A stretch of 32,000 bases of DNA from Aquifex aeolicus VF5 (lineage in GTDB: Bacteria > Aquificota > Aquificia > Aquificales > Aquificaceae). Below are positions 4,237 to 27,965 of this stretch, one piece after another (positions within the stretch are counted from its first letter, which is position 1; every line of letters starts with the position of its first letter). Position numbers and translations under genes: made by a program. The notes beneath the pieces were generated by a model, which saw only the letters and a list, made by a program, of their open reading frames with translations, was not told the DNA's origin and made no database searches. The DNA lies in NCBI RefSeq assembly GCF_000008625.1, contig NC_000918.1:1260001-1292000 (forward strand), written 5' to 3'.

Positions 4237-5730
4237 TTAAAATTTCTTAAGTTCTATGCCGTACTTCTTTATCCTGTAATCCAGCTGCCTTAAGGTGTAG
4301 CCGAGGAGTTTTGCCGCACGTGATTTTACGTAACCCGTTTTCTCCAGAGCTTCTATTATCCTTTTCTTCTCCGTCTCCTCTATAAACTTCGGAAGGTCAC
4401 CCGTTTTCCTTTCTCTCTTCCTCAAAAGTTCGGGAAGTTCAGAAGAGGTAACTCTTCCGTTGTTTAAGATGACGACCCTTTCTAGTATGTTTATCAATTC
4501 CCTTATATTACCTGGATAATCGTACTCCAGTAAAACTTCCAAAGCGTCTTCCGAGAGGTAAACTTCCTTGCCGTACTTCTTATTCAATTCCTTTAAGTAA
4601 TACTCAATCAATATCGGGATGTCTTCCTTCCTTTCCCTGAGGGGCGGAACGTAAAGAGGTACAACGTTTATCCTGTAGTAAAGATCTTCCCTGAACTTGC
4701 CTTCTTTGACTAGTTTTTCAAGGTCTTTGTTCGTTGCCGTTATTATCCTCACGTCCACTTTTATAGGTTTTTCACTTCCGAGTCTCTCAATCTCCCTTTC
4801 CTGAAGGGCTCTCAGGAGTTTTGCCTGGAGGGAAAGGGGCATGTCCCCTATCTCGTCGAGGAAGATGGTACCCCCGTTTGCCAGTTCAAACTTTCCTTTT
4901 TTAGTCGTATAAGCTCCCGTAAAGGCTCCCTTTTCGTACCCGAAGAGCTCCGACTCCAGAAGAGTTTCCGGAATGGAGGCACAGTTTACGGTAAGGAAGG
5001 GCTTTTCCCTCCTGCTGCTCTCGTAGTGGATTATCCTCGCAATTAAGCTCTTTCCAGTCCCGCTTTCTCCGAGTATGAGAACGGTGCTGTCGGTTTTCGC
5101 CACCTTTTCTATAGTGTCTATTAATTCCCTCATAACCTTACTCTTTCCGATGAGACCGTGAAGGGAATACTTTTCGCTCAGTTCCCTCGTCAGTTCCTTT
5201 CTCTGCTCTTCCCAAGCTTTTTTCTCACTCTCAAACTTTTCCCTTAACTTGAAAAACATACCGAGGAGGTTTCCGATTACGTTAATCGTCTGGTAGAAGT
5301 TCTCTAGACTCTCTTTATCACTAAACTCCTTGAATATCGTAATAACACCCTTAACCTCTCCACCAACCTTTATGGGAGCTGCTATGAGAGCGTGTTTTTC
5401 CGTGAGAAGCCTGCCTATTCCCGTTTTATTGGCAAAGGCGGAATTGTGTTTTACGTTAGGTATAACGAGGGGAATCCCCCTCTGGAACACCTTACCCGTT
5501 ATCCCTTCACCTTTTTTAAATGCCACGTCCTTATTCAGAAAGTACCCGTAAGAACTAGCAATCCTTAAGGTATTACCCTCCCTTATTGCTATAAAACTGT
5601 GTTCCACACCGAGGTAAGAGTAAAGGACCTTCAAAACTTCCTTTAAGCTCTCTTCAAAGGTATAATCACCCGTGAGGATTTTCGTTATCTCGTTTACAAC
5701 GTTTATCTCCTTTAATTTCAGTCTCTCCAT
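4237..5730 (-). CDS. Sigma-54-dependent transcriptional activator with an N-terminal GAF domain (NifA-like bEBP)
   Basis: 497 aa. GAF-like N-terminus, Walker A GESGTGKS, the sigma-54 contact loop GAFTGA, and a C-terminal Fis-type HTH (RAAKLLGYTLRQLDYRIKKYG). Confidence 0.92.
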   Translation of the reverse strand: MERLKLKEINVVNEITKILTGDYTFEESLKEVLKVLYSYLGVEHSFIAIREGNTLRIASSYGYFLNKDVAFKKGEGITGKVFQRGIPLVIPNVKHNSAFANKTGIGRLLTEKHALIAAPIKVGGEVKGVITIFKEFSDKESLENFYQTINVIGNLLGMFFKLREKFESEKKAWEEQRKELTRELSEKYSLHGLIGKSKVMRELIDTIEKVAKTDSTVLILGESGTGKSLIARIIHYESSRREKPFLTVNCASIPETLLESELFGYEKGAFTGAYTTKKGKFELANGGTIFLDEIGDMPLSLQAKLLRALQEREIERLGSEKPIKVDVRIITATNKDLEKLVKEGKFREDLYYRINVVPLYVPPLRERKEDIPILIEYYLKELNKKYGKEVYLSEDALEVLLEYDYPGNIRELINILERVVILNNGRVTSSELPELLRKRERKTGDLPKFIEETEKKRIIEALEKTGYVKSRAAKLLGYTLRQLDYRIKKYGIELKKF

Positions 5731-10542: not shown

Positions 10543-11424
10543 TCAGGGTTCTTTTGGCAGGTTTGTTTGTGAGTACTCGTTCCAAGAACCGTCGTACAAC
10601 CTCACCTTATCCGTAAGCCCGAGGTAATACTTTATCACATAGTAAGTTGCCGCGGACATAAGCCCCTGTCCGCAGTAAAGGATTACTTCCTTTCCTTTTC
10701 CTATACCGAGACTCTCGTAAAAGAGGCTTATATCTTCCTTCGGTTTTAGTAAGTAGTACTTTTTTCCGTACTTGTTAACGTGCTCTTCAAAATCTTGTTT
10801 CCAGAACCTGTTTACGGCTCCCTTTATGTGTCCCAGCCTCTTCCAGAATCCGGCCTTTCCTTCGTAAAGTTCCGGTGTCCTGGCATCGAGAAAGACTACG
10901 TCTTCTCTGTTTAAAGCTTTTTTAACGTAATCGAGGTCGGCTCTTATACTTTTGTTTATCGTATACTTTCCGTAACGTTTTTCTTTAACTTTCGGATAAT
11001 CCTTTGTCGTAGGTAGATCCTTATCCTTCCAGTGGTTAAATCCTCCGTGAAGGACGTATACTTTTTTGTGGTTTATGTAATCAAGTCCCCAAGCTACGTA
11101 AAAGGGGATGAAAGTCCCCTCAGCGTCGTATAGAACGACGGGAGTGTTCTTATCTATTCCGAGTTTTTCGAGTTTTTTGACGAATATTTCCGTGTGTAAG
11201 AAGAAAGCAGGAGTTCCACCTTTCGGAAATCTGAAGGCTTCAAAGTGCACCCACTGGGCTCCGGGTATGTGCTCCTTCCAGTATTCCTTTATGCTTTTCC
11301 TGAGGTCTATTATGACAAGGTTTTTCTCCTCTTTTATAAGTTTGTGGAGTTCTTCAGGCGAGATTAAGTAAATCTTTGCAAAGGAAAGTGTAAAAAAGAG
11401 TAAAAACAAAATTACTCCTCTCAT
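10543..11424 (-). CDS. Secreted tandem-rhodanese sulfurtransferase
   Basis: 293 aa. Signal peptide and two rhodanese-like halves. The second half carries a candidate active-site loop, YCGQGLMS. Confidence 0.85.
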   Translation of the reverse strand: MRGVILFLLFFTLSFAKIYLISPEELHKLIKEEKNLVIIDLRKSIKEYWKEHIPGAQWVHFEAFRFPKGGTPAFFLHTEIFVKKLEKLGIDKNTPVVLYDAEGTFIPFYVAWGLDYINHKKVYVLHGGFNHWKDKDLPTTKDYPKVKEKRYGKYTINKSIRADLDYVKKALNREDVVFLDARTPELYEGKAGFWKRLGHIKGAVNRFWKQDFEEHVNKYGKKYYLLKPKEDISLFYESLGIGKGKEVILYCGQGLMSAATYYVIKYYLGLTDKVRLYDGSWNEYSQTNLPKEP

Positions 11425-11860: not shown

Positions 11861-12345
11861 TTCCTTACCTCGTCAAGGGTTTTTCTCAAGTTTCTGTAAG
11901 TGTTTATTATGAGGTTTGCTTCCTCGTCCTTAAGTTGTTTTGCATACTCTGCAAGGAAAACCATTTCCTTCATGGTTGTTATTCTTAGAACTTCTTTTGT
12001 TTCGTAAACCGCAACGCTACAGGGGATTAAGTTCGTGAGTGCAGGGTATTTGGGAAGTATATTCTCCTTTCCGGGAACGTCGCAGGCGAGTATTATGGAG
12101 TACTTTGGAAAATCTTTTACTCCTCTTCCTTCAAGAGCCTTTGAAAGGGGAAGGACTCTTACGACTTTCAGTCCGTTTTGGTTGAGCTTTTCCTCCAAAG
12201 TCTTTACAACGTCGTCAAAGCTTTTGTTCTGTACTTCCACGGTGTAGAAGAGTATCCTGAAGGGATTACCGAAGTAATACCTTATGAAGTAAAAGATTGA
12301 AAGGGCGATGACCGCCCCGATCAGGAAAGCGATTAAAGCTCTCAC
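11857..12345 (-). CDS. DUF302 protein with an N-terminal membrane anchor
   Basis: 162 aa. One N-terminal TM helix and a DUF302-like core (...YSIILACDVPGKENIL...NLIPCSVAVYETKEVLRI). The GTG start forms a GTGA overlap with the soxB stop. Confidence 0.7.
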   Translation of the reverse strand: MRALIAFLIGAVIALSIFYFIRYYFGNPFRILFYTVEVQNKSFDDVVKTLEEKLNQNGLKVVRVLPLSKALEGRGVKDFPKYSIILACDVPGKENILPKYPALTNLIPCSVAVYETKEVLRITTMKEMVFLAEYAKQLKDEEANLIINTYRNLRKTLDEVRK

Positions 12346-14120
12346 TTACCACCTCCGTAGCACTCGTCGTAGGTGTGGTACTCTGCATCGAGAACCTTTA
12401 CGTTCGGCTTGGTTCTCACGTTTATGCTTCCCTTCTTCTTAATGTAGTTTATCAGTATCTCGTAAACGGGTACCGGTTTGTAGCCGGGTTCTACGGCTTC
12501 GGGCGGTGGCGGTGGTCCTCCGTAAACCGCGACGAGGTACTCCTTCTTTGGTTTCAGTTCTTTTCCGCCTATCCACACTCTCTTTATCCTGTTGTACTGG
12601 GGTCCGTTTACCTCTATTTCGTACTCAACGTTCCAGATTCTGGACATGTCACCACCTTGCTGGTAGAAGGGGTTAGGATTGAACACGTTGTCCGCAACGT
12701 CTTCCCATACGGCCTTTAGCTGTTCTCCCGTTCTCTTCAAGACGTAAACGTTCGGGTAAGTTATAGCCGTAAAGGCGTAAACGTGATCTACAGTTATCTT
12801 TTGTCCGGGAAGGACTACAGTTCCCCACCTGTAACCGGGAGATGTAACTACGTCAAGGTCTCCTCCGTAGTAATCGTTTATGGCTTCCCCAACGAGCCAG
12901 TCCCATGTGCTGAAGAAAGTGTCACGTTTGTAGAGCATCACCTCGGCGGTTCCTATTTCTTTGGAAAGTCCCAGTTTTTTATCCACTTCCCTGTAATACT
13001 TCTCAACAAGTTTTTCCGCTTCCTTGTCCGCGGGTATGAGGTTGGAAGCCACGGGATAGAGTTTGTAACTGAAGTCCATTATCTTTCCATTTCTGATGTC
13101 GAGGTCAAGTCTTCCTACGAATTTACCGTGGGATCCTGCAATTACCACTATAGTATTCGTTCCAGGAACCTTGTAGGCTTTTGGCACTACGTCGTGGGTG
13201 TGTCCCGAAATTATTACGTCTATTCCCTTTACCTTCTTTGCAAGGGCAATATCGAGGAGCAATCCGTCGTGGGATAGCAGTATTACAGCGTCAACCTTGT
13301 GCTTTTCCCTGAGTTCGTTTACGTATTCCTGCAGTGTATCTTCTCTTACTCCGAAGCTCCAGCCTTCTACGAATTGTCTCGGGTTTGCTATGGGAGTGAA
13401 GGGGAAGGAGTTTCCTATTATGCCGAGCTTCGCACCACCCACTTCCTTGATAGCGTAGGGCTTGAATACGAGGTCTCCTTCAAAACCGAATTCATCAACT
13501 TCCCTAATGTTTTGGGATATAAACTCACATCCTGCCTCTTCAAGTTCCTTTATCCTCTTTAAAACAATGTCTTTTCCGAAGGTGAATTCCCAGTGTCCAA
13601 CCATTAAGTCGTAGCCCGTGAGCTTCATCCAATCTACTACGGACTTTCCGTCTGTGAACGTTCCTACCGCGGTGGTTATCCAGGTGTCTCCACCGTCGAG
13701 GACCAGCACCTTGTCCCTTCCCCTTTCAGCTATTACGTGTTTTATGAGCCACGTTATGTGGGCTGCACCGCCCATTTTGCCGAACTTCTGGGCGAGAACC
13801 GGGAAGTCTACACAGCTCATAAAGTAAGCTTCAAGGGTTCCGGGGGCTATTTTGTACATTTTCAGGAAGTCTCTTCCCGTTATCGTTCCGGGAAGTCCCT
13901 TTAGATTTTTGGGAGCTACGAGGTTTATGGGTTCGGAAAAGTAGTGGGGTTTTAGGTGTGCGTGCATGTCTGTTGTGAAAAGCAAGGTAACGTTTCCCAC
14001 GGGTTTGAAGGAAAGTATGTCGTCGAGAGTCATCTTTGCGAGGGCGGATACGGGATTTGTGGCGAGGTATGCCCCCGTGACTATTGCGAGCTCCAGAAAG
14101 TCCCTGCGGGTCAGATGCAT
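12342..14120 (-). CDS. soxB: Thiosulfohydrolase SoxB (dinuclear-metal 5'-nucleotidase family)
   Basis: 592 aa. Twin-arginine signal MHLTRRDFLE, metallophosphoesterase motifs (TTDMHAH, GGDTW, GHWEF, SGHTHD), and a C-terminal nucleotidase-like domain. Strong AGGAGG RBS. Confidence 0.93.
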   Translation of the reverse strand: MHLTRRDFLELAIVTGAYLATNPVSALAKMTLDDILSFKPVGNVTLLFTTDMHAHLKPHYFSEPINLVAPKNLKGLPGTITGRDFLKMYKIAPGTLEAYFMSCVDFPVLAQKFGKMGGAAHITWLIKHVIAERGRDKVLVLDGGDTWITTAVGTFTDGKSVVDWMKLTGYDLMVGHWEFTFGKDIVLKRIKELEEAGCEFISQNIREVDEFGFEGDLVFKPYAIKEVGGAKLGIIGNSFPFTPIANPRQFVEGWSFGVREDTLQEYVNELREKHKVDAVILLSHDGLLLDIALAKKVKGIDVIISGHTHDVVPKAYKVPGTNTIVVIAGSHGKFVGRLDLDIRNGKIMDFSYKLYPVASNLIPADKEAEKLVEKYYREVDKKLGLSKEIGTAEVMLYKRDTFFSTWDWLVGEAINDYYGGDLDVVTSPGYRWGTVVLPGQKITVDHVYAFTAITYPNVYVLKRTGEQLKAVWEDVADNVFNPNPFYQQGGDMSRIWNVEYEIEVNGPQYNRIKRVWIGGKELKPKKEYLVAVYGGPPPPPEAVEPGYKPVPVYEILINYIKKKGSINVRTKPNVKVLDAEYHTYDECYGGGK

Positions 14121-14798: not shown

Positions 14799-15602
14799 TT
14801 ACCTAATTAGACCGGGAACTTCTATCTTTGCCCCATTAGCAGCCTTCTTCATGTAAAGTTCAAGGGCAACAACTTCCTCTATGTAGAACGGGGGTTTCTT
14901 TACCCAGTTCTTCTTAAAATCAAACTTTCCTTTTTCAGGGTCAAATAGGAAGAAGCTCTTGTAACATCCCCTTATCCTGTCTTCCATAGTCCAGAGTTTG
15001 TCTTTGGATATTCTGTAAGCGGGCCAATGAGCGTAGAGCTTGTCCCTTACAGGAGCTCCCAGTTTCTGCAACCTTATCCTCTTTCCGTCAAGAACCTCGT
15101 GACATATAGCACAGGAGAAGTCCCTCGCTCCCACTCTCTTGTACCAGAGTTCTTTACCGAGTTCGTAGAGCCTTTTTTCCTCAGGGTGCTTTAACTCAAC
15201 GTTTATGGGCATTCCGTTACTGAGAGTTGCCACGTATCCTGCGAGGGGAACTATGTACTTCCTTCCCTTTTTACCTTTAGCGTCTACACCTACGTATTTT
15301 TCTAAGCAAGCCTTTATCCTGACGTCTATGTCGGCAACCCTCTTTATATCCGTGTAGTACCTTGGCATTTTGGCGTAAGCTCCAACGAGGTTAGCTCCGT
15401 CCTGTCCGTGGCAGGAAGCACAGGTCTTTCCAGTTTTTCCCTTCAGGTTGTGGTAGTAATCCCTACCTTCCTCCACTATTACGTCCGCCGGTGAAACTCC
15501 CATTTCTTTGAGTATTTTCAACTGCTCGGGTGTTGGAGCTTCAGCCTTTACAGAAAAGAAAAGAGCCCCACTGAGGAGTGAGGCAAAAACTATTTTTCTC
15601 AT
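14799..15602 (-). CDS. soxA: Dihaem cytochrome c SoxA
   Basis: 267 aa. Signal peptide, two CxxCH motifs (CASCHG, CAICHE), and a conserved downstream Cys (IRGCY) that is a candidate haem ligand. Confidence 0.88.
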   Translation of the reverse strand: MRKIVFASLLSGALFFSVKAEAPTPEQLKILKEMGVSPADVIVEEGRDYYHNLKGKTGKTCASCHGQDGANLVGAYAKMPRYYTDIKRVADIDVRIKACLEKYVGVDAKGKKGRKYIVPLAGYVATLSNGMPINVELKHPEEKRLYELGKELWYKRVGARDFSCAICHEVLDGKRIRLQKLGAPVRDKLYAHWPAYRISKDKLWTMEDRIRGCYKSFFLFDPEKGKFDFKKNWVKKPPFYIEEVVALELYMKKAANGAKIEVPGLIR

Positions 15603-21206: not shown

Positions 21207-22484
21207 ATGAAGATAATTCTACTTTCACTCTTCTGGGTATTCTTTTCCTTCGGAAAGATATTCGTAGCCCAGTGGGAAGGCCCCATAACGCCCACTACCG
21301 CTGACTACGTTGAAAGGACTATACAGAAAGCACAGAAGGAAGGGGGAACGCTGTACATACTTCTCTTAAACACTCCCGGCGGACTTGTGGAGAGTATGAG
21401 GAAGATAATTCAGAGTTTCGAGACCGCTCCCTTTCCCATAGTAGTTTATGTTTATCCGCCGGGCGGGAGAGCTGCTTCAGCAGGGGCAATTATAACTATA
21501 GCCGCGGACATAGCCGCGATGGCCCCGGGCACCAATATAGGCGCGGCACACCCGGTCCTTGCAACACCGCAGGGTCGCGAAAAAAAGGAAAAGGGAAAGG
21601 ACGTTATGATGGAAAAGGTACTACAGGACATGCTCGCCTTCGTAAGAGCCATAGCCAAAGAAAAGGGAAGAAACGTAAAAGTAGTTGAAAAGATGGTAAA
21701 GGAGAGTCTTTCCCTTTCTGCGGAAGAAGCTCTGAAAAAGGGAGTAATAGACCTGATAGCGTATAACCTTGAGGACTTACTCACGAAACTAGAGGGTAAA
21801 AAAGTTAAAAAACTTAACGCGGTTTACGAAATAAGAACAAAGGGCAAAGAAGTAGTGTTTTTAAAACCGAGTCTGAGAGAAGAATTTCTGAAAATCATTA
21901 CAAATCCGACAGTGGCTTACCTCCTGCTCATGCTTGGATTTTACGGAATATTCTTCGAACTTTACAACCCTGGTGCCATAATCCCCGGTGTTCTGGGGGC
22001 TATATGTCTGCTCCTCGGTCTGTACGGTCTGAGCGTTATATCTATAAACTGGCTTGCCTTATTGCTTATAGTCCTCGGGATACTCTTTTTTGTCCTTGAA
22101 CTCCTTACTCCAACTTTCGGGGCCCTTGCCCTCGGAGGTGCTATTTCCATACTCCTAGGCTCACTTTTCCTCGTAGAAGAGGGTTCACCGTACGGAGAAA
22201 TCCCAAAGCAATTAATAATCAGTGTTTCCATTTTTAGTGCCATTTTCTTCCTCGGGGTAGGTTATCTTGGCTTGAAGGCTCAAAAGAGGAAGAAGCTCAC
22301 GGGAATTGAGGGGATGATAGGAGAAGAGGGAGAGGCTATTGTAGACTTTAAAAACGGGAGGGGAAAGGTATTCGTTCACGGGGAGATATGGGACGCTGTA
22401 TCGGAGGACGATATAAAGAAAGGGGATACGGTTAAAGTAGTAGGCGCTAAAGGTCTTAAATTAATCGTTAAGAAATCTTCGTGA
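21207..22484 (+). CDS. nfeD: Membrane-bound ClpP-class serine protease, long NfeD family
   Basis: Signal peptide, ClpP-like domain (NTPGG, RAASAGA), a multi-TM middle region, and a C-terminal OB-like NfeD domain (GRGKVFVHGEIWDAVS). I prefer the ATG at 21207; the track's TTG at 21189 overlaps purU. Confidence 0.85.
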   Translation: MKIILLSLFWVFFSFGKIFVAQWEGPITPTTADYVERTIQKAQKEGGTLYILLLNTPGGLVESMRKIIQSFETAPFPIVVYVYPPGGRAASAGAIITIAADIAAMAPGTNIGAAHPVLATPQGREKKEKGKDVMMEKVLQDMLAFVRAIAKEKGRNVKVVEKMVKESLSLSAEEALKKGVIDLIAYNLEDLLTKLEGKKVKKLNAVYEIRTKGKEVVFLKPSLREEFLKIITNPTVAYLLLMLGFYGIFFELYNPGAIIPGVLGAICLLLGLYGLSVISINWLALLLIVLGILFFVLELLTPTFGALALGGAISILLGSLFLVEEGSPYGEIPKQLIISVSIFSAIFFLGVGYLGLKAQKRKKLTGIEGMIGEEGEAIVDFKNGRGKVFVHGEIWDAVSEDDIKKGDTVKVVGAKGLKLIVKKSS

Positions 22485-22505
22485 AAGGGCTATATTTATT
22501 CCTTA

Positions 22506-22994
22506 ATGGAACTGGATCTCATAAGTTACGAACTTGACGAGAAAACTAAGGAAGGAATAGAGAAGGTTGTTGAGAAGTTCTTTACTAAAGCTGAACCAGA
22601 TTTAGTGCTCATATTTGACAAAGCAGGCAGGATACTCGCCTGTAAGGGGATGGATATCTCCGATACTTACTCCGAGTTCATATCAAGTATTCTCAGTGCT
22701 CTGTTCTTCGCCTCCGAAGAACTCACATCGATGCTGGACAAAAACGACGAGATGAAGGACGTGTTTTACGAGACAAAAAACAGGGTGTTTTTAATGGCAA
22801 GACTTGAAAAAGACTTCCTTATCGGAGTAATATCGAGGAAAAACCTATCTCTGGGAAGTATCAGACTCTTTTTCAATCACCTTGTGTCCGACCTCAACGC
22901 AGTTCTTAAAAACCTTAAAGAAGTAGAAAAGAAGAGTCTTAAAATTTCTAAGGAAGAGTTGAAGAAGAAACTGGATCAGATTCTGGGAAGCTGA
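22506..22994 (+). CDS. Roadblock/LC7 (MglB-like) protein with a C-terminal K/E-rich helix
   Basis: 162 aa. DLVLIFDKAGRILACKG...SSILSALFFASEEL...VFLMARLEKDFLIGVISRKNLSLGSIRL follows the Roadblock/LC7 alpha-beta-alpha pattern. Its stop lies 1 nt before the GTPase start. Confidence 0.7.
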   Translation: MELDLISYELDEKTKEGIEKVVEKFFTKAEPDLVLIFDKAGRILACKGMDISDTYSEFISSILSALFFASEELTSMLDKNDEMKDVFYETKNRVFLMARLEKDFLIGVISRKNLSLGSIRLFFNHLVSDLNAVLKNLKEVEKKSLKISKEELKKKLDQILGS

Positions 22995-22995
22995 A

Positions 22996-23421
22996 ATGAA
23001 GCTGAAAATAGTGTTCTTCGGTGCAAGTCTTGCAGGTAAGAGTACCACGGTGAGAAAGCTTTACGAGATTTTAAAGGAAAAGGGACTAGTAAAGGGAGAG
23101 TTTATGAGTATAGACACCGACGAAAAAAGGACACTCTTTGTGGAAATGTTCCTCAGTAAGATTCCTATAGACGGTCAGGAAATAGACTTTAAAATCCTCA
23201 CCACTCCCGGGCAGTTCAGACTTCACCCCCTCAGAAAGGCAATAATGCAGGGGGTGGACGGTCTTGTGTTTACCGTCGACTCTCAAACGGGAAGGGAAGA
23301 AATAAACTTTCTCGTTCTTCGTGAAACGGCACACGTGCTTAAGGACTCAACATGGATCTATACTCAATACCCGTCGTTGTTCAGTACAACAAGAGAGATC
23401 TTCCCGACGCACTTCCCATAG
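22996..23421 (+). CDS. MglA-type Ras-like small GTPase, N-terminal fragment (G1-G3)
   Basis: P-loop GASLAGKST, switch I TDEKRTLF, and G3 TTPGQ, as in MglA. From about 23347 this frame reads unrelated sequence (STWIYTQYPSLF...), while the -1 frame carries the rest of the G domain. Confidence 0.8.
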   Translation: MKLKIVFFGASLAGKSTTVRKLYEILKEKGLVKGEFMSIDTDEKRTLFVEMFLSKIPIDGQEIDFKILTTPGQFRLHPLRKAIMQGVDGLVFTVDSQTGREEINFLVLRETAHVLKDSTWIYTQYPSLFSTTREIFPTHFP

Positions 23422-23564
23422 ACGAACTCCAGCCTATATGTAATCCTTGGGACGCACCCTATACGGAAACCGTAGCCACAGAAGGAAAAGGTGTGCTCGA
23501 AACCTTTAAACTAATAGTGGAGAGGGTTCTGGAGAGGGATGTGGAAAGAGAAGGTAAGAGATAA
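23352..23564 (+). CDS. MglA-type small GTPase, C-terminal fragment (G4-G5)
   Basis: IPVVVQYNKRDLP (G4, NKxD) and ATEGKGV (G5). The frame is open from 23343, just after a TAA at 23340-23342. Confidence 0.75.
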   Translation: MDLYSIPVVVQYNKRDLPDALPIDELQPICNPWDAPYTETVATEGKGVLETFKLIVERVLERDVEREGKR

Positions 23565-24606
23565 CATCCTCGGTGAAGTTATCGACTGGAAGGCTTTAAT
23601 AGATTCCTTAAAAAAGGAAAGGTTTACAGGCTACATAAAAGTAGAGAGTTGGGATGAAACGGATTACGTGATACTCGCTGAAGGGAGTGTAAAGAAAATC
23701 GTAAGACATAAGGATAATAAGAAAACCTTTCTGGATACCTCAAATTACACACCCTCTTCGGAGAGTAAGATATCCGTTTACAAATCCTCACCTCTCACGA
23801 CTGCACACATATGCAAAGACTTAAATTTCTTTGAATACCAGACGCTCAGTTTATCGGGTTACGGGGAAGAAATATTCCACTCGGAATTGAATTTAGTGAA
23901 TCCCGAAAAGCTGGAGACCTTCTTCCAGAAAGTTAACCTTAACGGTTACGCTGTGATCTACACGTACACCAGCATTTACTGTAACGTTTTCCTGCTCCAG
24001 GGACATTTGGTAGGAATAAACGGTGGAAACACATGGGATAGTGAAGTTCCTTCACAAAAGGATTTATGGCAGGGAAAAGTCTTTTTATCCGCCTATTTCA
24101 TAGAGCCCGACGAAGTACTTCTTCTCATTTCCCTTAAAAGGGGCTTTAAAGAAAAGAATGAACTTAATGGAAACGGGTTTTTCGTGAACGGAAATTACGT
24201 AGGCTTTGTGGAAAACGGAAACATCAAGAAAGGTTTATTAATCCTTCCTGAGGAAATAGTGGAAACGCAGGAAGTAAAAGGAGAAAAGTTTCTGGAAGTG
24301 AACCTGATAGAAAATCCCGAAAGGCTTGAAATTTCTTTTAAAGACCTCATACCTAAGGAGGAAAAGAAAATCAAACCAGACGTACCCTTAAAGGTAAGAG
24401 AGATATTCCTCGACTACATAGGGCCGGTGGGTAAGATTTTGTGGGACAAGGTACTGCAGGAACTCGACATAAGCCCGGAGGAGTTTACACATCCTACGTT
24501 CAGGATGTTTATAAACAGACTTGCTCAAGAGATACCCGAAGAAGATCTCAGTAAAGAGTTCTTAAATAAAGCCTGGGAGGTTCTGGATGAAAGCACTTCT
24601 ACCTAA
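23539..24606 (+). CDS. 355-aa protein with two DUF4388/PATAN-like modules and a C-terminal helical domain
   Basis: ATG preceded by GGAGAGGG. Overlaps the GTPase 3' end by 26 nt. An approximately repeated pattern: ALIDSLKKERFTGYIKVES..DYVILAEGSVKKI and LETFFQKVNLNGYAVIYT..NVFLLQGHLVGI. The C-terminus reads IFLDYIGPVGKILWDKVLQEL... The family assignment is from memory only. Confidence 0.6.
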   Translation: MWKEKVRDNILGEVIDWKALIDSLKKERFTGYIKVESWDETDYVILAEGSVKKIVRHKDNKKTFLDTSNYTPSSESKISVYKSSPLTTAHICKDLNFFEYQTLSLSGYGEEIFHSELNLVNPEKLETFFQKVNLNGYAVIYTYTSIYCNVFLLQGHLVGINGGNTWDSEVPSQKDLWQGKVFLSAYFIEPDEVLLLISLKRGFKEKNELNGNGFFVNGNYVGFVENGNIKKGLLILPEEIVETQEVKGEKFLEVNLIENPERLEISFKDLIPKEEKKIKPDVPLKVREIFLDYIGPVGKILWDKVLQELDISPEEFTHPTFRMFINRLAQEIPEEDLSKEFLNKAWEVLDESTST

Positions 24607-25486
24607 ATCCATTAAAGGTAAAGTGAGCTTAATTATCGGTTCTATCGCGGTTGCGAGCGGACTGATAACGGGTTTTTACACCTATAACGAAGAAGTAAAA
24701 AAAGCCAAGGAAGTGTCCAAGGAAAAGGTGAGGTTGACTCTTGCCTTTTCAAAGTCTATCAGAGGTTATGTGAGAGAAACACTTAGACCCAAAATATACG
24801 AGCTGATGAACGAGTACAAGTGTATTAAGGAAGACTTCATACTGGAAGCTCAATCCTCTTCCTTCTTGACTTCGAACATTTTCAGAAGTGTAAGCAGAGA
24901 GTTTCAGGGGTTGACTTTAAGGCAAGTGGCTTTCAAACCTTTAAATCCAAAGAACGAACCGACTCCCGTTGAGCAGAAGATAATAGAGTACTTCAGGAAA
25001 ACTAAAGCACCTGAGTACACGGAAATCGTTAACATAAACAACTACAGGTATTTGGTCTCAGCTTTTCCGGTTAAAGTAGAGGCTTCCTGTCTCATGTGCC
25101 ACGGAAAAGTGGAAAATATGCCAAAAGCTGTAAAAGCTATATATAAACCCAAAGAGGACCCGAACTGGAAAGTTGACGAGATACAGGGAGGAATTTTCGT
25201 ATACGAACCCTACGAGGCTACACTTTTGAGGGCACAACTGAGCGGTCTCATAAAGGGAGGAACTATATTCTTCGTAAACATACTCGTTCTCGGTATCATA
25301 CTCTGGATACTAAACCGCTACGTTTTCAGCCCTATAAACGTTCTCAAGGAACACGCGGATAAGATAAGCAAGGGTGAAATAGATGACAGGATACCTGTAA
25401 AGGGAGAAGACGAGATAGGAGAACTCGCAAAGGCTTTTGAGAGAATGAGGATAAGCATAAAGAAAGTTATGGATCTACTCAAGTGA
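24587..25486 (+). CDS. Membrane sensor: TM, periplasmic c-haem domain (DUF3365/Tll0287-like), TM, HAMP, with no output domain
   Basis: 299 aa. N-terminal TM helix, periplasmic domain with CLMCHG (CxxCH, nt 25088-25102), a second TM (about aa 224-244), and HAMP (PINVLKEHADKISKGEIDDRIPVKGEDEIGELAKAFERM). The stop comes 9 residues later. Overlaps the upstream gene by 20 nt. Confidence 0.75.
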   Translation: MKALLPKSIKGKVSLIIGSIAVASGLITGFYTYNEEVKKAKEVSKEKVRLTLAFSKSIRGYVRETLRPKIYELMNEYKCIKEDFILEAQSSSFLTSNIFRSVSREFQGLTLRQVAFKPLNPKNEPTPVEQKIIEYFRKTKAPEYTEIVNINNYRYLVSAFPVKVEASCLMCHGKVENMPKAVKAIYKPKEDPNWKVDEIQGGIFVYEPYEATLLRAQLSGLIKGGTIFFVNILVLGIILWILNRYVFSPINVLKEHADKISKGEIDDRIPVKGEDEIGELAKAFERMRISIKKVMDLLK

Positions 25487-25783
25487 TCTGATAACCTCTT
25501 CTAGGAAGCCCTCCGCTTCCTTCAGAGCTTCGTCACTTCCCTTTAGCTTCGTGTACAGCTCAAGAACTTCCCTTCCTCTGCTGTCGGCAATAAGGGGATA
25601 AATCATCCTAAGCAGAATCATAAGCTCCTTCTTCCTCTCTTCTCCGTTTTTAGATTTGATATTTTCCCACCTTTTCTTTATCAGGCTCACTTCTGTCTTT
25701 CTGATGTCCATAGGGAAAATTTTAAAATACTTGAGGTAATGCCCAGAGCTATTCTGGAGATAAACAGTGAAAGGATAAGACAC
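25475..25783 (-). CDS. Small hypothetical helical protein
   Basis: 102-aa ORF with no recognised family. An alternative start at ATG 25711 (MDIRKTEV..., 78 aa) would remove the 45-nt divergent overlap with alr. Confidence 0.45.
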   Translation of the reverse strand: MSYPFTVYLQNSSGHYLKYFKIFPMDIRKTEVSLIKKRWENIKSKNGEERKKELMILLRMIYPLIADSRGREVLELYTKLKGSDEALKEAEGFLEEVIRSLE

Positions 25784-26755
25784 AACGTCAAGAAGTTATC
25801 GGAGTTTTCCGGGAAAAAGGTTATAGCGGTTATAAAGGCGGACGCCTACGGTATAGGTTCTATACAAATGGCAAAAATACTAGAGCCTATTGAAGAAGTG
25901 GACGCTTTCGCGGTAGCCTGCGTTGAAGAGGGGGTTGAACTCAGGAAAATGGGAATAAAAAAGGAAATACTCATACTGGGAGGAGTACTGAAGGATGAAG
26001 TCCCTTTAGTAGAGGAGTACTTCCTTACCCCCGTTGTTTCGGATATTGAGCACCTGAGAGCTATAGGAAACAGGGATATAAAGTTTCACGTAAAGTACGA
26101 CACGGGAATGGGAAGACTTGGGTTTTTGAACGAAGTTATACACGACCCGAGGGTGGAAGGGATAATGAGTCACCTCTCGAGCCCGGCGGACGAAGAATTT
26201 TCCAAACTCCAGATAAAGAAGTTTGAGGAGATAGTTAAGAAGTACACAAAAGTTGAGAAAATCCACATGGAGAGTTCAGCAGGTGTTGTGTACAGAGTGC
26301 CTTTTACCACTCACATAAGGGTAGGGCTTGCAATGTACGGCGAAAAACCCCTGAAGAATTACCCCGTTGATATAAAACCCGCACTCACTCTTAAAGCTAA
26401 GTTAATATCCGTAAAGGAACTTCCTGAAAATTATCCGGTATCTTACAGCAGGACGTACGTAACTAAGAAAAAAACGAAAACAGGTGTAGTTGCCTTCGGG
26501 TACGCGGACGGACTCATGAAAACACTGTCCAACAGGAGTTATTTGCTTTATAAGGGAGAAAAGCTACCAATTTTCGGGAACATTACCATGGACATGACAA
26601 TAGTGGACCTGAAAAATACGGACGCAAAGGTAGGGGATTGGGTTTACGTGGTAAACGAAGAAAGAACCTTTACGGAACTTGCAAGAGAAGCGGGAACGAT
26701 ACCCTATGAGCTCATGTGCAACTTATCAAAAAGGATTAAAAGAGTCGTAGTGTAG
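25739..26755 (+). CDS. alr: Alanine racemase
   Basis: 338 aa. PLP-lysine motif AVIKADAYGIG, then SHLS and YGYADG-type motifs (FGYADGL). Confidence 0.92.
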   Translation: MPRAILEINSERIRHNVKKLSEFSGKKVIAVIKADAYGIGSIQMAKILEPIEEVDAFAVACVEEGVELRKMGIKKEILILGGVLKDEVPLVEEYFLTPVVSDIEHLRAIGNRDIKFHVKYDTGMGRLGFLNEVIHDPRVEGIMSHLSSPADEEFSKLQIKKFEEIVKKYTKVEKIHMESSAGVVYRVPFTTHIRVGLAMYGEKPLKNYPVDIKPALTLKAKLISVKELPENYPVSYSRTYVTKKKTKTGVVAFGYADGLMKTLSNRSYLLYKGEKLPIFGNITMDMTIVDLKNTDAKVGDWVYVVNEERTFTELAREAGTIPYELMCNLSKRIKRVVV

Positions 26756-27396
26756 ATTAAAGTAAATAGAGCCACAAATAAAAAGTAAATTTTTAGTTTC
26801 TTACTCCCGAATATAATCGCGTATCCAGACTTAAATAAATTGTTGGACATAACCGCGAGGAGTATCCCCATCGCCGCAACGTCTACGCCTATTTCCCCCT
26901 TATCGGAAAGTCTCGCGAGGAGCAGTGTAATTGCGTCTATGTCCATTATTCCAGATAAAAAACTCAAGACGTAAATTCCCTCGTCACCAAAGTGAGTCTT
27001 CAAATAGTGAGAAATAACGCTTATAGTGGAGTAAATTAAACCGAAGGTAAAAGCCTGAGAGAGGGAAAAGGGATTTTTTATTGACATGCTCCCACCTTCC
27101 TCGTGGTTCTTGTTACCTTTCAAGTACAAAAATATTGCAAACATAAGCAATAAGGCAAAATACGGAAGGAGTAATAGGACGAGTTTATAAATCATTCCCT
27201 CAAATATGATGAAGGTGTAAAAGATAACCCTGAAAAACATAACGAGCCAGGAAAGGATTATTGAAAAGAAGAATAGTTCCGAGAGGTATGAGAATTTTCT
27301 TGAGAGATTAGAAAAAGCCATAGTTACCGCGGTACTGGAAGGGATACCGCCGATGAGTGCTGTGAGGATTAAACTTCCTGTTCCTTTGTACTTCAA
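26704..27396 (-). CDS. DUF4010 membrane domain: C-terminal fragment of a split MgtC/DUF4010 gene
   Basis: LTALIGGIPSSTAVTMAF is the typical DUF4010 motif. The TTG start is an artefact: the frame stays open upstream to at least 27637 and reads ...REDVITVLKFFTISFVVFPLLPDREIIRGLNPSEVWKFVILVSSVDFVGYFLLKYKG. Confidence 0.7.
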   Translation of the reverse strand: MKYKGTGSLILTALIGGIPSSTAVTMAFSNLSRKFSYLSELFFFSIILSWLVMFFRVIFYTFIIFEGMIYKLVLLLLPYFALLLMFAIFLYLKGNKNHEEGGSMSIKNPFSLSQAFTFGLIYSTISVISHYLKTHFGDEGIYVLSFLSGIMDIDAITLLLARLSDKGEIGVDVAAMGILLAVMSNNLFKSGYAIIFGSKKLKIYFLFVALFTLIYTTTLLILFDKLHMSS

Positions 27397-27539: not shown

Positions 27540-27965
27540 TTACGTCCTCTCGTCCAGTCTTTTTGCGAGGTTCTCCATACTGTCTCTGAGGACGAGGATA
27601 AAAGTCGTAAGGATTGTGGTAACAACGGCCAAGTAGTACTCGCCTGCAGAAACAAGTAGACCTACTATAAATGTAATCAACGCGGAAACTTCGGTGGTTA
27701 TACCCATACTTCTGTCCTTCCAGTAACTAATGGACGCAAGGATTATAAGCCCAAGAAAACTCAAGAAAACGTAAGGAAATTCCCTGTAAAGGAAACCCGA
27801 AAGTGTTCCCAGAACCGCTATCAAAGGGAATGTCCTTATTCCCGCGAAGATGTCGTGTCCGAATTTAGCCCTTATCTCCCTTTCAAGTCCGATAATAAGT
27901 CCGAGGAAAGCAGAAAAAACGATTTTAAATTCGGGGGAGGCGGAGAACTCCTTAAAAAAATCCAT
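27540..27965 (-). CDS. MgtC/SapB-family membrane domain: N-terminal fragment of a split MgtC/DUF4010 gene
   Basis: 141 aa. GLIIGLEREIRAK...AGIRTFPLIA is the MgtC-family signature. Its ATG is directly adjacent to the stop of the upstream membrane-protein gene. Confidence 0.75.
   Translation of the reverse strand: MDFFKEFSASPEFKIVFSAFLGLIIGLEREIRAKFGHDIFAGIRTFPLIAVLGTLSGFLYREFPYVFLSFLGLIILASISYWKDRSMGITTEVSALITFIVGLLVSAGEYYLAVVTTILTTFILVLRDSMENLAKRLDERT

Follow-up and report, generated by a model that had tools for sequence, protein, structure and literature searches.

We analyzed a 32 000-nt stretch of the Aquifex aeolicus VF5 genome (contig NC_000918.1, positions 1,260,001 to 1,292,000 of the forward strand; in the following 'the window') and focused on four genes that lie head to tail on its plus strand. 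They encode a Roadblock/LC7 protein (aq_1822), a small GTPase of the MglA type, an adaptor protein (aq_1824) and a membrane sensor with a periplasmic haem-c domain and a cytoplasmic HAMP domain. The 355-aa product of the third gene is 100% identical to aq_1824, which identifies the DNA as A. aeolicus. A first-pass annotation, made from the bare sequence, had described the same head-to-tail order with a 1-nt gap and overlaps of 26 and 20 nt, and all of its coordinates match our analysis of open reading frames (ORFs): the GTPase gene starts with an ATG at 22996, one nucleotide after the Roadblock ORF ends at 22994, and it overlaps the adaptor gene at 23539-23564, which in turn overlaps the sensor gene at 24587-24606. 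The Roadblock, HAMP and Tll0287-like (formerly DUF3365) domains that this annotation expected were also recovered in profile searches. The features of the locus are:

22506..22994, plus strand: Roadblock/LC7 MglB-like gene aq_1822, 162 aa (Robl_LC7, E 2.9e-16)
22996..23564, plus strand: MglA-family GTPase gene, interrupted by a 1-nt deletion (ORF calls, Pfam Ras, repaired copy from an independent contig, L001)
23344..23345, plus strand: frameshift point in mglA (alignment with L001)
23539-24606, plus strand: full aq_1824 ORF, 355 aa
23539..24324, plus strand: aq_1824 residues 1-262, three PATAN/DUF4388-like modules (hhalign, AlphaFold2, remote profile matches)
24376..24597, plus strand: DUF8082 domain of aq_1824, residues ~280-353 (precomputed PF26309, AlphaFold2 helices)
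24587..25486, plus strand: receptor gene of the Cache_heme-HAMP (CHH) type, 299 aa (Tll0287-like and HAMP in Pfam, hydropathy)
24821..24823, plus strand: codon of Cys79, an invariant residue on the periplasmic side and candidate distal haem ligand
25088..25102, plus strand: CxxCH haem-c attachment motif, C168-L-M-C171-H172 (conserved in orthologues)
25310..25483, plus strand: HAMP domain of the sensor (Pfam HAMP, E 6.8e-15)
22468..22496, plus strand: weak promoter-like -35/-10 pair, TTAAGA-17 nt-TATATT, just 5' of the Roadblock start

The promoter-like pair is not significant by itself, as a consensus promoter scan returned 8 sites where 6.5 were expected.

For comparison we gathered related loci with a 13-sequence subset of the 27-sequence adaptor alignment and scored them with custom profiles; a narrow Aquifex alignment had yielded just two loci. 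The 28 loci obtained come from two Aquifex metagenome-assembled genomes (MAGs), from Thermocrinis ruber and from hot-spring and vent metagenome contigs. With the window included, 25 loci are informative, while the remaining 4 end at contig edges. The order Roadblock-MglA-adaptor-sensor is constant in all 25 (Aquifex, Thermocrinis-type and other Aquificaceae contigs). Among 19 intact loci the Roadblock/MglA junction ranges from -11 to +3 nt (typically -4), the MglA/adaptor junction is -23 nt and the adaptor/sensor junction lies between -4 and -17 nt. Order and overlaps persist while the identity of the adaptor falls to ~20%, and the clustering of the four genes is far beyond chance. Named members of the adaptor family were also found in Thermocrinis minervae and Hydrogenobacter thermophilus, and every named member belongs to the Aquificaceae.

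In contrast to this constant core, the flanks vary. An NfeD gene lies 5' of the unit in A. aeolicus and opposite-strand ORFs in the Aquifex MAGs, whereas in Thermocrinis-type loci we observed a PAS-like HisKA/HATPase_c kinase on the 5' side and PhoU on the 3' side (the latter in the T. ruber locus and one related contig; L004 and L029). Because the flanking genes differ between genera, the four genes form a conserved unit that starts at the Roadblock gene; the upstream NfeD gene was considered as a further member and ruled out, since other genera have different upstream neighbours. The Thermocrinis-type kinase gene is located 15-27 nt 5' of the Roadblock gene and has a 4-nt overlap with a preceding epimerase gene (L004 2955-3935, with equivalents in L005-L007, L012-L018, L021 and L029). 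Its product is soluble, with a maximum hydropathy of 1.39 and no transmembrane (TM) segment, and it is absent from Aquifex and about half of the loci. The first-pass remark that the system has no HATPase domain is therefore true for Aquifex but not for the Thermocrinis-type neighbourhoods. No Pkinase domain was found in any gene of the Aquificaceae loci by domain annotation. On the 3' side of the A. aeolicus unit, a 102-aa ORF on the minus strand (25475-25783, starting with GTG; 78 aa in other assemblies) is convergent to the sensor gene; it overlaps the last 12 nt of that gene as well as the start of an alanine racemase gene and has no Pfam or NCBIfam family match.

The Roadblock protein and the interrupted mglA gene

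In agreement with the initial Roadblock/LC7 call, aq_1822 matches Pfam Robl_LC7 with 59.4 bits (cut-off 23; E 2.9e-16), and it carries a helical C-terminal extension like the MglB proteins that partner Group 1 MglA. Its closest solved relatives are MglB structures, including that of Myxococcus xanthus, although these matches are weak (E 0.037-0.08), and with 18.9 bits the protein stays below the NCBIfam equivalog model for Thermus MglB (GTPaseActivMglBThm, cut-off 200). In the supplementary table of Wuichet and Sogaard-Andersen (2014) aq_1822 is recorded as an 'orphan MglB', presumably because a frameshift in mglA concealed its partner.

The GTPase region 22996-23564 comprises 569 nt, which is not divisible by 3, so that the protein is not encoded by one ORF in the window. 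A first frame (22996-23421, 141 aa) covers positions 1-100 of the Ras profile with the motifs G1 (GASLAGKST), G2 (K-R-T with an intrinsic Arg) and G3 (TTPGQ), followed by an out-of-frame tail to the stop at 23421; a second frame (23352-23564, 70 aa) covers Ras positions 105-161 with G4 (NKRD) and G5. We compared the window with an A. aeolicus contig from an independent read set (ERR15087784; L001), which is 99.9% identical and differs by 3 substitutions and 3 single-base indels over 10.9 kb. The window lacks one A at 23344/23345 (AAGG-ACTC), reading AAGGACTC where L001 has AAGGAACTC. Restoring this base results in an uninterrupted GTPase of 189 aa, as encoded by L001, and the unbroken GTPase genes of other orthologous loci encode 186-189 aa. 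The first-pass annotation had recognized an MglA-type GTPase by its G1-G5 motifs, which stands after repair, but it had overlooked the missing A and thereby the split into two frames. A second of two single-base frameshifts of the window within these 10.9 kb affects the MgtC + DUF4010 gene, which is a single 420-aa ORF in L001; owing to one T missing at 27550 it is split into 27540-27965 and 26704-27396 (both minus strand).

The repaired protein aligns with positions 1-161 of Pfam Ras (E 4.7e-12), with Thermus MglA (3t12) over nearly its full length (E 6.8e-35) and with Myxococcus MglA (E 8.6e-32). Group 1 MglA proteins were defined by a length below 240 aa, an intrinsic Arg by the G2 Thr, a G3 motif TVPGQ and an mglB homologue within four genes (Wuichet and Sogaard-Andersen 2014). 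The repaired GTPase, at 189 aa, falls in this size range and has a Ras-superfamily G domain with the motifs G1-G5. An Arg adjoins the G2 Thr (K-R-T-L-F in A. aeolicus, N-R-T-L-F in orthologues), and the Roadblock gene is located directly upstream. G3 is TTPGQ in each of the four orthologues examined, so that the first Thr, Pro, Gly and Gln are kept and the second position is T instead of V. The Hydrogenobacter orthologue HTH_1830 (189 aa) is classified as Group 1 '<MglA<MglB' in the same survey. The repaired GTPase is clearly a member of the MglA family, and its motifs are of the Group 1 type.

A programmed frameshift in mglA was ruled out: there is neither a slippery heptamer nor a homopolymer at CTTAAGGACTCA, and the orthologous loci have a single ORF of 186-189 aa. 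This points to a simple 1-nt deletion or a sequencing error rather than recoding. In one lineage of the strain the deletion may be genuine, because a separate assembly (SRR29904083) encodes the same truncated 141-aa ORF; it also shares the split MgtC/DUF4010 gene. In L001 mglA is intact, while a 1-nt deletion in an A-run splits the sensor gene (L001 7049-7947, corresponding to window position 25113), and thus each A. aeolicus dataset has one broken gene of the four-gene unit. Taken together, these observations would fit a VF5 unit that is a decaying remnant, with a genuine mglA frameshift and with function solely in relatives that have intact genes; we consider the chances of this to be even. 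What speaks against it is that mglA shows no further substitution or indel compared to the intact copy, and a one-base difference alone is what a sequencing error or an event of very recent date would leave. Moreover, single-base frameshifts are common artefacts of the metagenome contigs (L015, L016, L019, L022 and L028), and a few of the orthologous contigs carry breaks of their own in mglA. One broken gene per dataset could be a coincidence, an error in sequencing or the result of a loss of the pathway in the laboratory. In the genome of the window the unit is either inactivated or mis-sequenced. Decay would describe the state of one genome and not the nature of the unit, and it is compatible with the explanation that we favour below.

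The haem-c receptor and the adaptor

The sensor starts with a first TM segment (residues ~13-33), followed by a periplasmic Tll0287-like haem-c domain (39-208; Pfam E 4.7e-32), a second TM segment (~220-245) and a HAMP domain (242-299, with the Pfam match at 242-292) that forms the end of the protein. Hydropathy gave two hydrophobic segments, the sensor ends right after HAMP, and its orthologues all have 298-303 aa; the first-pass description of a two-TM sensor with a periplasmic CxxCH and nothing but HAMP in the cytoplasm thus proved accurate. The CxxCH motif at residues 168-172 was kept in 4 orthologues by a motif check, is invariant in 10 of 10 orthologues and aligns with C141-x-x-C144-H145 of Tll0287 (5b82; E 1.7e-7 to 3.6e-7). 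For the HAMP domain the best solved sequence match is Af1503 (E 1.6e-7). Mean pairwise identity among the sensor orthologues amounts to 91% in the HAMP segment AS2, compared to 65% in AS1 and 59% in the periplasmic domain. The nearly invariant AS2 helix EDEIGELAKAFERMRISIKKVMDLLK is proposed to be the docking surface for the DUF8082 domain of the adaptor.

Two preprints from the Crane and Zhulin laboratories (bioRxiv 10.64898/2026.05.25.727664 and 10.64898/2026.02.01.703092) redefine DUF3365/Tll0287 as a haem-c Cache domain, sCache_heme, and describe CHH receptors as Cache_heme followed by a TM region and an output-less HAMP. According to these preprints, the CHH receptor of Pseudomonas azotoformans binds nitric oxide (NO), and a Ser/Thr kinase encoded in its operon binds the receptor with nanomolar affinity; by cryo-EM the two C-terminal four-helix bundles of the kinase touch the HAMP dimer via IGPLARFLVRKSLN and IGPIARIVVSRALR. 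The Aquifex sensor has the periplasmic Tll0287 domain with CxxCH, a TM segment leading into an output-less HAMP, and an adjacent partner with a helical module. The PknB-like Ser/Thr kinase is missing, the partner here being PATAN-like and the Aquificaceae loci having no Pkinase domain. On the basis of this domain content the sensor is a CHH receptor, a class membership that the first-pass annotation did not notice.

A further cysteine, Cys79, is invariant in 10 of 10 sensor orthologues and is a candidate for the distal haem ligand. In two profile searches the alignments to Tll0287 run from chain residue 82 onward, past Cys68 of that protein, so Cys79 and Cys68 are not paired there. Cys79 may make the haem six-coordinate with Cys/His ligation. 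In the preprints, Cys/His-ligated sCache_heme members bind NO and O2 poorly and are redox-like, whereas the NO-binding CHH receptor has no axial Cys; this raises the possibility of a redox signal instead of NO. NO is the precedent by analogy, and redox sensing is equally open. One could go further and regard the haem protein as chiefly a periplasmic redox or electron-transfer component, as has been proposed for the stand-alone Cys/His-ligated sCache_heme proteins, instead of a receptor. Beside Cys79 and the redox-like behaviour of its ligation class, the sulfur-oxidation genes elsewhere in the window fit this idea. However, electron transfer would give no role to a near-invariant HAMP (AS2 91%) on a two-TM protein, sCache_heme domains that are fused to signalling modules fall into the signalling cluster of the preprint, and the sensor gene is translationally coupled to genes of cytoplasmic signalling proteins. 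We therefore consider a mainly electron-transferring function very unlikely.

The adaptor aq_1824 was predicted by AlphaFold2 with a mean pLDDT of 92.8 as three alpha/beta modules (residues 1-106, 107-203 and 204-262) followed by four helices. By hhalign the first module is homologous to the second with 96% and to the third with 95% probability. Two similar N-terminal modules and a helical tail had been noticed before, and this description could be extended to three homologous modules. Their relation to DUF4388 (PF14332, the PATAN domain) is distant. The protein itself has no Pfam match at E <= 1 (including DUF4388) and none in the local Pfam/NCBIfam libraries, and 4 of 27 adaptor-family members match DUF4388 weakly (best E 8.8e-4). 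A search of 1.8 billion representative proteins with the family profile returned ~30 full-length relatives (350-395 aa) as well as partial matches to the first ~65 and the last ~80 residues of aq_1824. The N-terminal partial matches are DUF4388 (PATAN) or DUF2226 proteins (E 1e-8 to 1e-4); 11 of the 34 partial matches carry DUF4388 and 3 carry DUF2226. Three of the proteins found (P0040, P0042 and P0045) reached E 1e-8 to 7e-7, and two (P0042 and P0056) exceed the DUF4388 cut-off. We consider the modules to be remote homologues of DUF4388/PATAN; the earlier label 'DUF4388-like' is thus tenable as remote homology, but not as a Pfam match of aq_1824 itself. A Foldseek search of the full model against the PDB gave no meaningful match (best E 3e-3, TM-score ~0.13), the top match being sliding-clamp noise from the repeated alpha/beta modules, and a profile search against PDB sequences returned nothing at E <= 10.

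The four C-terminal helices (residues 281-294, 298-309, 318-329 and 335-353 in the AlphaFold2 model) constitute a DUF8082 domain (PF26309), an assignment taken from precomputed annotation that covers aq_1824 and nearly all listed homologues. The candidate HAMP-docking helix DYIGPVGKILWDKVLQ spans residues 286-309 (nt 24394-24465) and is followed by an EIPEED motif. It carries IGPVGKILWDKVLQ, an IGP-x-G/A-K/R helix motif, and the consensus of this first long helix in the adaptor family, EEIGPIGxLxWxKIL, is the most conserved motif of the family. Mean pairwise identity in the family is 36-46% for DUF8082 (46% for the helix) compared to 18-24% for the PATAN-like modules. The DUF8082 helix and HAMP AS2 are the best-conserved segments of the system.

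A 705-aa Ser/Thr kinase from a cyanobacterial MAG (P0043) was matched by the aq_1824 profile with E 5.7e-8 among the 1.8 billion proteins. The match spans five C-terminal repeats of the form 'VGPLSRFIVKDVL...AAEIPD' ('...ELAxFVGPLSRFIVKDVL...LAAEIPD...F'), the kinase is annotated with DUF8082, and its gene directly adjoins a 312-aa Tll0287-like + HAMP (CHH) gene whose product is 27% identical to the Aquifex sensor (E 5e-26) over the Cache core, the second TM segment and HAMP. In addition, the aq_1824 motif agrees with both HAMP-contact helices of the P. azotoformans kinase. Profile matching shows homology between DUF8082 and the repeats of a kinase whose gene adjoins that of a CHH receptor, and together with the contact-helix motif this suggests that the helical tail of the adaptor, which the first-pass annotation had left without this identity, is the module that docks kinases onto CHH HAMP domains. 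The helix with IGPVGKILWDKVL would then face the receptor HAMP, as in the kinase-CHH cryo-EM structure. The repeats of the cyanobacterial kinase (residues ~340-705; L033 5001-7118) also match Pfam NGO1945_C (34 bits), and DUF8082-like modules may also be present in an NGO1945_C-associated system. A word-index-based homology search with DUF8082 alone returned five small proteins, of which one is a frameshift fragment of the adaptor family and another adjoined an unrelated two-component/HD/STAS/MshEN cluster at a contig end. In the literature searched, we found no paper that mentions DUF8082, aq_1824, Hydth_1812 or THERU_00935.

Proposed signalling route and output

The same parts were observed in a second layout. 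Persephonella sp. and Hydrogenothermus marinus (Hydrogenothermaceae) have a tight cluster that encodes a HAMP-only protein, a Roadblock-DUF8082 fusion, a canonical Robl_LC7 protein, a PatA_N protein and a Ras-like GTPase, so that HAMP-only receptor, DUF8082, PATAN, Roadblock and MglA-family proteins occur together in two gene arrangements. The HAMP-only protein (129 aa) consists of just two TM helices and HAMP, and the Persephonella HAMP is 41% identical to that of the Aquifex sensor (E 1e-16). For the DUF8082 protein of this cluster (284-347 aa) structure prediction gave an MglB-type Roadblock fold, a disordered acidic linker and a four-helix DUF8082 bundle. The top Foldseek matches of its N-terminal domain are the MglB proteins of M. 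xanthus and Thermus thermophilus (E 4e-7, probability 1.00, target TM-score 0.75-0.79). By sequence, hhalign of this family (P0044) with Roadblock yielded 19% probability, the fold match coming from structure prediction and Foldseek. The fusion provides a link at the gene level between the HAMP-docking module and MglA regulators. The accompanying GTPase, with TT in G2 and GTPGQ in G3, belongs to the Group 2-5 type, which indicates that HAMP/DUF8082 input pairs with either MglA class. A third arrangement in an unrelated MAG, GCA_030153585.1 (L032 4496-6788), comprises a DUF4388 protein (170 aa), a DUF8082 protein (101 aa), a 102-aa ORF, a Cache + HAMP-only protein (213 aa) and lastly a DUF4388-like protein (146 aa). 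This row suggests that docking follows the same logic in Cache-HAMP receptors without haem. Furthermore, one protein (P0059) is a DUF4388-DUF8082 fusion.

Taken together, we think that the four genes rather probably encode a CHH receptor-coupled MglA/MglB switch, in which the receptor HAMP signals to DUF8082 of aq_1824, and the PATAN-like modules pass this on to MglA and the Roadblock protein, with type IV pili or polarity as the favoured output. A dimeric CHH receptor would sense a periplasmic haem ligand or redox state, NO being the leading candidate by analogy. The signal would cross the output-less HAMP, whose conformational state would be read by the DUF8082 domain of aq_1824. There are probably two adaptors per receptor dimer, because the kinase possesses two bundles but aq_1824 a single one. 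The three PATAN-like modules may hold or position MglA, its Roadblock/MglB partner or both, the latter being the presumed GTPase-activating protein (GAP) of MglA. The state of the receptor would thereby alter the GTP/GDP cycle or the location of MglA, and hence where and when MglA-GTP is available. The central idea of the first-pass annotation, an output-less membrane sensor coupled to Roadblock and MglA through a non-catalytic adaptor, is supported, as is its list of parts, and strengthened by the synteny.

Since the known partner of a CHH receptor is a kinase, the sensor and the GTPase module could also be neighbours with separate functions, the receptor signalling to a kinase elsewhere (of the Ser/Thr type, or the soluble histidine kinase of the Thermocrinis-type loci) and aq_1824, MglA and MglB forming an independent polarity module. 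In at least 8 loci a histidine kinase gene is indeed located 15-27 nt 5' of the cluster, and MglA-PATAN neighbourhoods that lack a HAMP receptor exist (aq_1560, aq_1844). However, the sensor and adaptor genes overlap by 4-20 nt in every locus and are never detached in 25 loci, the adaptor has the module that docks kinases onto CHH HAMP, and there is no Pkinase gene in any Aquificaceae locus. The Hydrogenothermaceae moreover repeat the combination of HAMP, DUF8082 and MglA/MglB with different gene fusions. Such a separation of functions is therefore unlikely in our view.

Several points weigh against a receptor-coupled switch. The contact between DUF8082 and HAMP in the Aquifex unit is inferred; the P. 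azotoformans bundles were equated with DUF8082 via 14-residue published motifs and the cyanobacterial kinase, not via the full kinase sequence, and aq_1824 has one bundle instead of two. The adaptor scores below all DUF4388 thresholds of Pfam, and no neighbour of its complete fold was found in the PDB. By sequence, aq_1822 is weakly MglB-like. Cys79 is invariant here, whereas the NO-binding CHH receptor has no axial Cys, and the two CHH papers are preprints that are not peer reviewed. Finally, frameshifts affect mglA in the window and, in the other A. aeolicus assembly, the sensor gene.

Concerning the output, PilB1 and PilC interact in yeast two-hybrid assays with the PATAN domain of PixE, every PatA-type regulator tested has PilB1 as a binding partner, and MglA/MglB sort pilus ATPases in Myxococcus. 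MglA/MglB genes often adjoin PATAN genes (Makarova et al. 2006; Wuichet and Sogaard-Andersen 2014), and a PilM/FtsA-like gene follows the second MglB-PATAN-MglA cluster of A. aeolicus. From PATAN binding to the pilus motor, the Myxococcus precedent and this neighbour, control of type IV pili or polarity is our best guess, though a tentative one that we hold with somewhat less than even confidence. The second A. aeolicus cluster (aq_1844 of the 2014 survey) is located ~5 kb past the window end (L037 5315-9589, minus strand). It comprises, in this order, a 203-aa single-TM coiled-coil protein, a Robl_LC7 protein (117 aa), a PatA_N protein (230 aa), a Group 2-5-type GTPase (186 aa), a 55-aa ORF, a PilM_2/FtsA-like protein (344 aa) and a polytopic membrane protein (290 aa). 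A link of this cluster to HAMP/DUF8082 was considered and rejected, as its 203-aa and 210-aa neighbours have no similarity to HAMP, DUF8082 or the adaptor.

Other genes of the window include sulfur-oxidation-type genes on the minus strand, namely those of a SoxA/TsdA cytochrome c domain protein (14799-15602), of a protein that carries a 5'-nucleotidase C-terminal domain and may resemble SoxB (12342-14120) and of a rhodanese (10543-11424). The same strand also encodes a sigma-54 activator with a GAF domain (4237-5730). Among ten further window ORFs that were annotated there are no pilus or flagellar genes.

It is conceivable, at slightly under an even chance, that DUF8082 is a general plug that connects output-less HAMP receptors to interchangeable outputs, either Ser/Thr kinases or MglA/MglB via PATAN or Roadblock fusions, and that it gives the Aquificaceae a receptor-to-G-protein pathway which evolved independently of eukaryotic G-protein-coupled receptors and actinobacterial conservons. 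In that case kinase outputs in proteobacteria and cyanobacteria would have MglA/MglB switches as their counterparts in Aquificota, where the nucleotide state or the location of MglA, and thereby type IV pilus polarity, would depend on a haem-c signal from the periplasm (NO or redox). If the contact between DUF8082 and HAMP is real, there are at least two classes of output for CHH receptors, DUF8082, whose function has been unknown so far, acquires a role, and the 'orphan MglB' aq_1822 is part of a complete system that was concealed by a frameshift. The control of MglA outside Myxococcus, where the input is the Frz chemosensory system, is largely unknown, and the partners of output-less HAMP receptors had likewise been unclear before the 2026 report of a kinase partner; the locus joins both problems. 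With its transmembrane receptor, docking adaptor, GAP-like Roadblock protein and small GTPase, it also offers a compact thermostable set suited to reconstitution.

Comparison with known systems

The actinobacterial conservons, to which the first-pass annotation had likened the unit, show four matching roles: a HAMP membrane sensor, a Roadblock protein, a protein whose function is unknown and an MglA-family GTPase. If the unit were a conservon-type system, the sensor would take the role of CvnA and act on a complex of Roadblock, adaptor and GTPase corresponding to CvnB, CvnC and CvnD, and the HisKA + HATPase_c kinase directly upstream in Thermocrinis-type loci could be regarded in the same light. 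However, CvnA is a histidine kinase, CvnC a DUF742 protein and CvnD a Group 2 MglA (no Arg finger, with Thr for Arg, GTPGQ and NxFD), and the Aquifex unit has none of these. Its GTPase has the intrinsic Arg, TTPGQ and NKRD; its sensor contains neither HisKA nor HATPase_c; its adaptor is composed of PATAN-like modules and DUF8082; and no protein of the cluster matches DUF742 at E <= 1, as had been anticipated. The Thermocrinis kinase is soluble and missing from Aquifex and about half of the loci, so that no membrane kinase of the CvnA type is present. We therefore regard a conservon-type system as highly improbable; what remains of the likeness is the analogy of a receptor that feeds a GTPase.

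Compared to the Group 1 MglA/MglB systems of M. xanthus and T. thermophilus, the Aquifex unit is alike in the Arg finger, the Thr-x-Pro-Gly-Gln of G3 and the NKRD of G4, and in a Roadblock gene that is immediately upstream and translationally coupled. It differs in a Roadblock protein that is very divergent from characterized MglB (E ~0.04), and in its input: none of RomR/RomX or Frz-type input was seen in Aquifex, where a dedicated receptor appears to act via the adaptor. PATAN-superfamily modules beside MglA and MglB are a feature that the unit shares with MglA-PATAN(-MglB) neighbourhoods. This association has already been catalogued for aq_1560, aq_1844 and HTH_1432 (Makarova et al. 2006; Wuichet and Sogaard-Andersen 2014), while at the Hydrogenobacter locus HTH_1830 just MglA and MglB were listed (Wuichet and Sogaard-Andersen 2014). 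In the PatA-type regulators PixE and PixG of Synechocystis, PATAN serves for output by binding proteins and makes contact with the motor of type IV pili. In contrast to these and to the MglA-PATAN proteins, aq_1824 is too divergent for Pfam, has three tandem modules and no receiver domain, and ends in DUF8082.

On the receptor side, Af1503 of Archaeoglobus fulgidus is, like the Aquifex sensor, a two-TM receptor with HAMP as its sole cytoplasmic part, but it has neither a haem sensor domain nor an established partner. The receptor in the CHH-kinase system of P. azotoformans resembles that of Aquifex in the periplasmic haem-c Cache domain with CxxCH, the two TM segments and the output-less HAMP, and in both systems the adjacent partner bears a small module of four helices, among them one with IGP-x-[GA]-[KR]. 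In contrast, the Aquifex partner has three PATAN-like modules instead of a kinase domain and one bundle instead of two, the sensor keeps an extra invariant Cys that the NO-binding receptor does not have, and the unit adds MglA and Roadblock; the two systems moreover belong to Aquificota and gamma-proteobacteria, respectively. The CHH preprint (bioRxiv 10.64898/2026.05.25.727664) makes no mention of GTPases, Roadblock, PATAN or Aquificota. In the literature searched, we found no CHH or HAMP-only receptor described as coupled to MglA/MglB and no function of DUF8082 beyond the kinase context, in line with the first-pass statement that this four-part architecture was not known to have been characterized. 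The five-gene variant of the Hydrogenothermaceae has the same HAMP-only, DUF8082, Roadblock, PATAN and MglA-family parts in a tight cluster, although its receptor lacks a periplasmic domain, DUF8082 and an MglB-like Roadblock domain are fused, PATAN is separate and canonical, and the GTPase is of the Group 2-5 type. The parts of the Aquifex unit are of known kinds, while the apparent wiring of a CHH receptor to MglA/MglB via a PATAN-DUF8082 adaptor is new and so far confined to Aquificota.

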